A stretch of 27,443 nucleotides of DNA from a bacterium (lineage in GTDB: Bacteria > Patescibacteriota > Minisyncoccia > Phycocordibacterales > GWA1-40-21), in the NCBI GenBank assembly GCA_043818495.1, contig JBDRFT010000056.1:1-27443 (forward strand), in the 5' to 3' direction. Positions 13,569 through 13,969 of the stretch are shown here, piece by piece (position 1 is the stretch's first letter; every line of letters begins with the position of its first letter). The position numbers and the translations under genes are program-made. The notes under the pieces were generated by a model. The model worked only from the letters and a program-made list of their open reading frames with translations, was not told the origin of the DNA and did no database searches.

Positions 13569-13657
13569 GGAGAGGTGTCAGAGTGGTCTAATGTACTTCT
13601 TTGCTAAAGAAGTGGACTCTTTAAACGGTCCCGCGAGTTCGAATCTCGCCCTCTCCG
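13569..13657 (+). tRNA. tRNA-Ser(GCT), long variable arm, no CCA in this copy
   Basis: ggagagg/cctctcc acceptor, cttct-ttGCTaa-agaag, ggac/gtcc variable arm, gcgag-ttcgaat-ctcgc. Confidence 0.97.
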
Positions 13658-13842
13658 CAGTTTTGAACGCAGTGAAAAACTGCGGAGAGGAGCAAGCAAA
13701 CTGCTTTGCTTGCGTGCGAGATTCGAAAGATTTTTCTTTATAAATTTTTATGAACAATAAAAATTTATGGAAAAATACCTGGCTATGTAATAGCCGAAAC
13801 CGCCCTCTCCGCCAGTTTTGAACGCAGTGAAAAACTGCGGAG
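13647..13842. mobile_element. Putative 154-bp tRNA-targeted non-coding element flanked by 41/42-bp direct repeats of the tRNA 3' end plus hairpin
   Basis: cgccctctccgc(c)agttttgaacgcagtgaaaaactgcggag at 13647-13687 and 13801-13842; internal antisense to tRNA at 13680-13690 and 13716-13727; three internal hairpins. Confidence 0.6.
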
Positions 13843-13855
13843 TATATTAAAAATA

Positions 13856-13933
13856 GCTCGAACGGAATTCTTCCCTCGCCCGCCTGTGGCGGGCTCGGGT
13901 CGGGAGGGCAAAAAATCCGTGCGGCTTTGCCAC
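13856..13933. other. GC-rich structured non-coding segment
   Basis: acggaatt-cttccctc-gcccgcc-tgt-ggcgggc-tcgggtcg-ggaggg-caaaaaa-tccgt nested stems in very AT-rich context. Confidence 0.55.
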
Positions 13934-13969
13934 AAAAATTAACAATTTCAAGTTTTTTTTAGAGGTGCA

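Follow-up and report, generated by a model that had tools for sequence, protein, structure and literature searches.

The window, ie the whole stretch of 27,443 nucleotides analysed here, poses a question at the 3' end of its tRNA-Ser(GCT) gene. A gene-less stretch of 154 bp begins there which carries a second copy of the tRNA end and also an antisense copy of that end, divided in two by a hairpin. Is this an insertion that has landed in the tRNA gene, a guide that chooses its target, or a part of the tRNA precursor that is of use to the cell? The sequence-only reading of the locus took it to be a non-autonomous element whose antisense arms specify or record the target, or alternatively a trailer of the pre-tRNA that invades the T and acceptor arms.

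Parts of the tRNA-Ser(GCT) locus

The tRNA-Ser(GCT) gene was located by ARAGORN at 13569..13658 on the + strand and matched Rfam RF00005 with 51.4 bits. According to the tRNA list it is the sole tRNA in the assembly for AGY codons. Its 3' terminus is N73(G)-C-A, and CCA is not gene-encoded. A repeat search gave two exact direct repeats, 13647-13658/13801-13812 (12 nt) and 13658-13687/13813-13842 (30 nt). Their spacing differs by one extra C, with the result that G-CCA (13811-13814) occurs only in the second copy. The repeats at 13647 and 13801, and the restriction of CCA to the second of them, were thereby confirmed as they had first been described. Perfect inverted repeats are found at 13650-13664/13676-13690 (15 nt, 100%) and 13638-13649/13716-13727 (12 nt, 100%), ie the contiguous block 13638-13664 is the complement of the two antisense arms combined, and the split antisense copy around a hairpin insert is equally well founded.

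From 5' to 3', the parts are as follows. The proximal sense block, sense1 (13638..13664, +), comprises the T loop, the 3' strand of the T stem, the 3' strand of the acceptor, G73, CA and five nucleotides of the trailer, and is the strand paired by both arms. Inverted repeat and fold agree on P2 (13650..13690, +), a perfect 15-bp hairpin with the loop GAACGCAGTGA, the 3' strand of which is the L, or anti-acceptor, arm. Between the arms lies a 25-nt insert composed of A (13691), GCAAGCAAACTGCTTTGCTTGC (13692..13713, +) and GT (13714-13715); the central 22 nt form the conserved hairpin P3, referred to below as CH. The R arm (13716..13727, +) is the exact complement of tRNA positions 54-65 (13638-13649) and, by forming P1, closes a three-way junction. 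The hairpin splits the antisense copy exactly at tRNA position 65/66. There follows an X domain of type A (13728..13795, +), supported by an alignment of 21 copies (A1), in which the junction GAAAG, a stem S1 (13730-13737/13769-13776) around a variable hairpin, the linker ACCT and a small GNRA-looped hairpin, ggctatGTAAtagcc at 13781-13795, succeed one another; the two further hairpins noticed earlier, at 13730-13776 and 13781-13795, are real. The last part is a distal partial copy of the tRNA end, sense2 (13796..13842, +). In it gaaac, a decayed remnant of the T loop, is followed by cgccctctccG-CCA and by the P2 hairpin once more, the copy being cut off ahead of any conserved hairpin. Its 'gccgaaac' is a decayed 'gccgaatc', the form present in the sister copy on contig C31. 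Most likely sense2 is either the original, displaced 3' end of the tRNA or a decayed second unit.

The fold of the stretch gave z = -10.5 against shuffled sequences, and none of 200 shuffles was as good. Two other readings, an intron within the tRNA and a split tRNA whose missing part is the distal copy, were considered and rejected for this locus, since the distal T-stem strand ccgcc is unable to pair with the 5' strand gcgag and since the proximal copy alone gives an intact tRNA. The neighbouring genes are housekeeping genes, encoding a class II aminoacyl-tRNA synthetase, MreB, MreC, CTP synthase and DoxX.

Two simple explanations had been named at the outset, a one-off template switch and an assembly artefact. 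The former is excluded by the size of the family to which the stretch belongs. The latter is unlikely, since a unitig at single-copy depth (30.6) from an independent groundwater run spans 13768-13879, which takes in part of the X domain, the CCA copy and unique sequence beyond it, and since the same architecture is seen in more than 100 loci of unrelated assemblies. The interior of the cassette is 7-25x deeper in groundwater-metagenome unitigs, as expected of a repeat. Contig-level read data for this locus contained neither a circular or excised form nor an empty site within the population. None of 19 other tRNA-Ser(GCT) loci in the genus has the flanking genes of the window, and an exact empty site is therefore not definable.

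A separate module lies further downstream (13851..13937, +), consisting of TAGCTCGAACG followed by a GC-rich hairpin, and is probably outside the cassette proper. The combination of TAG(C/T)T(C/T)GAACG with a GC-rich hairpin occurs at four loci behind tRNA genes or cassettes (the window and contigs C29, C57 and C58). In run X1 a minority contig (depth 6.8, compared to about 35) is without 13871-13937, ie the GC-rich hairpin is present or absent within the population.

Spread and fold of the cassette family

The 154-bp stretch is a complete type-A copy of a family of gene-less cassettes. About 20 copies of the 22-nt hairpin are present in this 686-kb genome, and about 16 of its 40 tRNA genes have the hairpin behind them if stem variants are counted. 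Allowing up to two mismatches, the hairpin was found in 26 of 41 related genomes, which are non-independent samples (17 of the 24 in the genus, plus eight other families of the order), and a reversed-pattern control gave no match. In a scan of one genome per prokaryotic species, the 18-nt core appeared in many Paceibacterota lineages and in Saccharibacteria. The sequence-only reading had proposed to look for the scaffold beside tRNAs elsewhere, and it does adjoin many tRNAs in many genomes. The cassettes measure 150-230 nt and are also found behind tmRNA (L009 and L060) and behind the protein genes topA (L044) and rplE (L153 and L161). Tandem arrays occur at C31, C46, C70, L023, L025 and L048. 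The present locus has the features that define the family. A folded module without genes follows immediately on a tRNA or tmRNA gene and contains both an antisense and a sense copy of the end of that gene.

Besides Paceibacterota and Saccharibacteria, the exact 22-mer was found in one isolate, a Thiohalobacter, and in MAGs carrying the labels Campylobacterales, Elusimicrobiaceae and Gammaproteobacteria; the five genomes searched have one to three exact copies each, and mis-binning is possible for the MAGs. These loci are L085 (Thiohalobacter thiocyanaticus Hrh1, NZ_QZMU01000002.1), L090, L125, L131 and L147. Their copies have X-like flanks and the loop motif GAGCGTAGCGAG, and mostly do not adjoin a tRNA.

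No Rfam family matched the cassette at the gathering score or at E <= 1, and only tRNA and tmRNA scored above the thresholds. A known RNA family, ribozyme, riboswitch or sRNA in the X domain was discarded, the rest of the Rfam matches being chance hairpin matches. No description of the cassettes was found in the literature, and the family is apparently undescribed, though widespread in ultra-small CPR (Candidate Phyla Radiation) bacteria. A role of the hairpin as a DNA-uptake sequence was also rejected. Uptake sequences are far more numerous and dispersed than the roughly 20 copies seen here, most of which are at tRNA or module sites.

Throughout the family the order is the 3' end of the gene (for tRNAs, from the T loop to N73-CA), P2, CH, R arm, X domain and a second, partial copy of the gene end. 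The base of P2 usually takes in the 3' strand of the acceptor, with the descending strand as L arm, and the R arm pairs back to the T loop and the 3' strand of the T stem. The resulting junction of P1, P2 and CH includes tRNA positions 54-76 and a few bases of the trailer. The working 3' end of the gene is either provided by the cassette or adjoins it. Several types of X domain are interchangeable across the family. Of the 22 pairs predicted in the type-A alignment (21 copies), 11 have changed on both sides in a compensatory way; they belong to the outer part of CH, to stem S1 and to the small hairpin with the GNRA loop. GAAAG and GAAAAGYACCYG, the motifs of the junction, do not vary. The outer stem pairs of CH covary (GCGAGC..GCTCGC, ACAAGC..GCTTGT, GAAAGC..GCTTTC and others), and the inner part, AGCAAACTGCTTTGCT, is almost invariant. 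The fold is clearly under selection. Of 68 units, 56 fold better on the tRNA-sense strand than on the opposite strand. G.U pairs in the arms outnumber A.C pairs by 19 to 10 overall and by 16 to 5 in the L arm; as proof of RNA-level selection this asymmetry was set aside, being only modest.

One further feature of the loops was observed. The motif GA(R)CG(N)AG(Y)GA(G), with a C-GNA-G mini-hairpin core inside it, is strand-specific. It was seen repeatedly in the loops of P2 and X, always on the tRNA-sense strand, for example at 13665-13675 in the window and in the X loops of L030, L051 and L059.

Gain, loss and the role of the arms

Orthologues of tRNA-Ser(GCT) in the genus are empty in at least nine genomes (four with CCA, five without), and others are filled with cassettes that have different central hairpins and X types. 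At rplE, 6 of 31 relatives of one Nomurabacteria genome are filled by a cassette subfamily, at the same codons. On the L5 tree this distribution needs five gains or losses, of which at least three are forced by well-supported branches alone. The sister genomes L229 (filled) and L225 (empty), supported at 100/97, differ at rplE in that L229 has an insert of 226 nt and, in addition, repeats the VPLQK codons imperfectly over 15 nt. In L229 the native tail PAEAK* and its terminator have been moved downstream, where they make up the distal copy, and the gene now ends at a new stop codon within the P2 hairpin. The crossover point is not placeable because filled and empty genomes are about 20% diverged. 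This filled and empty sister pair, together with the patchy spread on the L5 tree, argues that the cassettes are insertions. The rplE arrangement is what would be expected of integrative elements which substitute a 3' end of their own for that of the gene they enter. The window fits this as well, since its distal copy keeps CCA, as in four of the empty tRNA-Ser(GCT) orthologues.

With somewhat more confidence than doubt, we read the stretch as a non-autonomous insertion cassette, in which the 3' end of the target is folded, sense with antisense, around a conserved hairpin that has the look of a protein-binding site. Such a cassette would recombine into the T loop, where the repeated block has its left edge, and would bring its own CCA-less tRNA end and the antisense to that end. 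The original, CCA-bearing end would be pushed downstream, much as tRNA-integrating islands make attL and attR, and the proximal copy would then be of foreign origin. The arms would be structural, ie a folded, duplex-like version of the site whose complementarity to the proximal copy is maintained. Tandem arrays would arise as each insertion regenerates the site. Apart from the turnover at tRNA-Ser(GCT), the patchy rplE occupancy and the sister pair, insertion fits the tandem arrays and the sporadic copies in distant phyla. To be counted against it is, firstly, that no mobilising enzyme was found in the 94%-complete genome. Secondly, one scaffold has to exist with matching sense and antisense pairs for more than 20 different tRNAs. 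Thirdly, conservation of fold and hairpin across CPR classes would fit a host-useful RNA equally well.

The tyrosine recombinase profile PF00589 had no match in the genome, not even XerC or XerD, and all of 14 control genomes gave matches. There was no match to the IS110-type (DEDD) transposase PF01548, and no reverse transcriptase was found in this genome. The Y1 transposase PF01797 is represented by two broken fragments with internal stop codons and no intact ORF. The sequence-only reading had suggested a search for a co-occurring recombinase, and the genome offers no candidate apart from one serine recombinase on another contig. That gene, a large serine recombinase (C53:3698-4934), has an in-frame TAG or is truncated at the contig end. 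It is accompanied by XRE- and SET-domain-like genes, as read by eye from the sequence, and lies about 2.9 kb downstream of a second, cassette-free copy of tRNA-Leu(CAA).

The arms do follow the neighbouring gene. Mean Watson-Crick pairing was 23.9 with the cognate upstream block, compared to 14.2 with non-cognate blocks (non-cognate 95th percentile 19), which bears out the expectation that the arms covary with the adjacent tRNA. In 47 of 74 non-redundant units a single uninterrupted stretch upstream offers each arm 8 or more Watson-Crick pairs, and the arms are complementary to the gene end just upstream whatever the gene, including tmRNA, rplE and topA. This tracking, seen in every genome examined, is what favours the proposal of the sequence-only reading that the arms specify or record the target, in the manner of IS110/IS1111 bridge or seek RNA and with a putative recombinase. 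Two more observations point the same way. The R arms of the rplE subfamily follow the own synonymous codons of each genome, and the X cores of the tRNA-Glu cassette on contig C37 and a tRNA-Ser cassette on C46 are identical (60/60 nt) while their arms are gene-specific. This is the only pair found with near-identical cores and gene-specific arms, and the C37 copy, which may be chimeric, falls within a repeat where its contig ends.

The preference of the arms for the proximal, working copy over the distal one speaks against a guide. Among 166 non-redundant CH matches, taken with no pre-selection, the proximal copy is the better partner of the R arm in 107 and the distal copy in 45. Good, contiguous pairing of the two arms was found with the proximal side in 70 matches and with the distal side in 24, only 3 of the latter being distal-only. 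Within the window it is the CA copy, together with the intact sequence of the T loop, that the arms match, rather than the CCA copy. The two arms are antisense to the same strand, and no DEDD transposase is present. The split is not fixed relative to the insertion point, since CH splits the trailer instead in L091, L092, L101 and L109, and some units are without CH altogether (L026). Because the position of CH shifts in this way and some units do without it, the hairpin-split antisense copy is to be seen as a consequence of the junction and not as the design of a guide. The arms look like part of the cassette's own fold rather than a programmable guide, and we consider a guide-bearing element improbable. 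From the original proposal of a non-autonomous, tRNA-targeting element, the gene-less family at tRNA 3' ends is thus retained; the specification of the target by the arms, like a guide-bearing IS RNA, is given up in view of the proximal pairing.

The end of C37 (17049-17196) has an arrangement of its own. The tRNA-Glu cassette there has Glu-specific arms, yet its X domain is the one found in the tRNA-Ser(TGA) cassette, without any difference, and the sense copy that comes next, at the contig end, is of the Ser type. In reads, a type-A X domain was found joined to a Glu-type sense copy, a junction absent from the assembly. The arrangement is either a mixed array or a repeat-induced chimera.

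Several known classes of element share features with the proposed insertion cassette. Integrative elements of tRNA and tmRNA genes (tyrosine-integrase islands, prophages, CIMEs and satellites) share the direct repeat of the gene's 3' end from the T loop, a working end that is the proximal copy with the original displaced distally, the capacity for tandem insertion, and the use of tmRNA and of protein-gene 3' ends with a replacement coding tail. In the window an attL/attR-like pair is found at 13647-13687/13801-13842; the repeats in the family are of 8-60 nt and start in the T loop or T stem. The cassettes differ in being only 150-230 nt, without cargo and without an integrase in the genome, in having a conserved three-way junction with the antisense of the site, and in presenting one scaffold at more than 20 different tRNAs. 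The direct repeat from the T loop and the CCA kept in the distal copy would also suit the decayed scar of an integrase-bearing island or prophage in tRNA-Ser, with attL and attR left and the interior mostly deleted. However, the interior is a complete, conserved and covarying fold, of nearly equal size in hundreds of copies, the genome has no tyrosine recombinase and the neighbours are housekeeping genes. Such a scar is very improbable, and is effectively refuted by the family-wide conservation of the interior.

Like CTXphi-type IMEX and integron attC sites, the cassettes have a sense and antisense site which can fold to mimic a duplex, encode no recombinase, and on integration would regenerate the site and form tandem arrays. 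Those systems need the tyrosine recombinases XerCD or IntI, whereas there is no PF00589 in this genome, and their target is dif or attI rather than a tRNA end. The likeness to the IS110/IS1111 bridge (seek) RNA is one of working principle only, ie a structured non-coding part with segments complementary to the integration site; here there is no DEDD transposase, and arms antisense to the same strand match the cassette-proximal copy, not the target. REP/BIME, Correia and RUP elements (MITE-like) are likewise high-copy, gene-less, hairpin-rich and modular, with effects expected at both the DNA and the RNA level, but the cassettes are strictly at gene 3' ends, in the orientation of the gene, and each is matched to its host gene. 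Unlike MITEs they have no terminal inverted repeats and no fixed-length target duplication, the repeat being 8-60 nt of the gene's 3' end. Unlike RAYT-mobilised REP/BIME, they occur in a genome with no intact Y1 (HUH) transposase, only the two PF01797 fragments. Other hairpin families are also present in this genome. RtT repeats (E. coli tyrT operon, RF00391) are tandem non-coding units distal to a tRNA gene, and each unit repeats the 3'-terminal bases of the tRNA. They have no sequence or structure match to the cassette, and a search with their covariance model gave nothing in this genome or, at E <= 1, in 13 loci. To our knowledge RtT occurs at a single locus only and lacks antisense arms, a conserved hairpin and a three-way junction.

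The cassette in the tRNA precursor

If transcribed with the tRNA, the cassette would compete with it for the same strand. The predicted energy of the invaded pre-tRNA is -116.8 kcal/mol, compared to -32.1 for the cloverleaf plus -67.2 for the trailer, ie the invaded state is about 17 kcal/mol more stable. An invasion of the T and acceptor arms by the trailer is thermodynamically plausible in this model. CCA is encoded in none of 16 cassette-bearing tRNA genes but in 8 of the 24 without a cassette (p = 0.013). Position 74 is C in all 40 tRNA genes. The full CCA is present in eight, and most of the others end N73-C-A, with a few N73-C-T; a partly encoded CCA end seems to be general in this genome, whether or not a cassette is present. 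A CCA-adding enzyme is encoded. A canonical RNase Z was not detected in it, though 32 of the 40 tRNA genes are without CCA; the only RNase Z-like gene encodes a divergent 329-aa MBL-fold protein (C7:3047-4036, - strand; L204:1132-2121), with 54.7 bits against the TIGR02651 cut-off of 293. Endonucleolytic maturation by RNase Z of the B. subtilis type is inhibited by CCA. The absence of CCA from cassette-bearing tRNA genes would be expected if the trailer blocked exonucleolytic trimming. Conceivably the cell cuts the precursor early, or the structure serves as a signal for processing or termination. An RNA-level role, or an RNA-level cost that the cell manages, seems plausible from these predictions, and either would be compatible with an insertional origin.

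These considerations lead to the main competitor of the insertion cassette, a cis-acting RNA module useful to the host, ie a conserved 3'-end clamp or switch for highly expressed stable RNAs. Its R arm would pair either with the T region of the tRNA or with the distal copy, the latter closing the X domain, and this bistable switch would control termination, endonucleolytic 3' processing or release of the tRNA. The repeat of the gene end would then exist since both partners must match one arm, and not by insertion. The compensatory changes, which extend to all helices, and the invariant junction motifs suit such a module, as do the preference for the tRNA-sense strand, the excess of G.U in the L arm, the predicted stability of the invaded state and the lack of encoded CCA in every cassette-bearing tRNA gene. 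The R arm has a distal-side partner of at least 7 bp in 88 of the 166 copies. A 948-nt contig from an RNA library that contains the hairpin of a relative's tRNA-Arg cassette is a weak pointer in the same direction. A host module is harder to reconcile with the patchy presence at orthologous tRNA-Ser and rplE sites, where X types and central hairpins are swapped, with an L5 tail truncated by the rplE insertion, and with tandem arrays that have no obvious RNA logic. In several copies, moreover, the distal copy has decayed (here in its T part) while the arms are intact, and sporadic copies occur in distant phyla, at 1-3 per genome where counted. We regard a purely host-useful module as rather unlikely.

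The two properties need not be alternatives. It is possible, though we hold it with more doubt than confidence, that the family is a new kind of element, a protein-less cassette which provides in its three-way junction both the substrate for integration, perhaps by a host enzyme, and an RNA clamp on the 3' half of about one third of the tRNAs. A selfish insertion would then also gate the maturation of tRNAs throughout the Candidate Phyla Radiation.

It is in a tiny, streamlined CPR/Patescibacteria genome that about 16 of 40 tRNA genes have a folded appendage of 150-230 nt. The appendage is present even on single-copy essential tRNAs such as tRNA-Ser(GCT), the T and acceptor arms of which it is predicted to unfold at equilibrium. 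One possible explanation is a dedicated processing of the precursors, which would bear on how tRNAs mature in CPR bacteria when only a divergent RNase Z-like protein is found. The other is a highly successful selfish element without protein, for which gene 3' ends would be a safe harbour. The conservation of the hairpin from Paceibacterota to Saccharibacteria, and in the few records labelled as non-CPR, points to a putative conserved binding partner. The cassettes are also a practical nuisance. Assemblies break at tRNA loci, and many of the copies in this genome are at contig ends.
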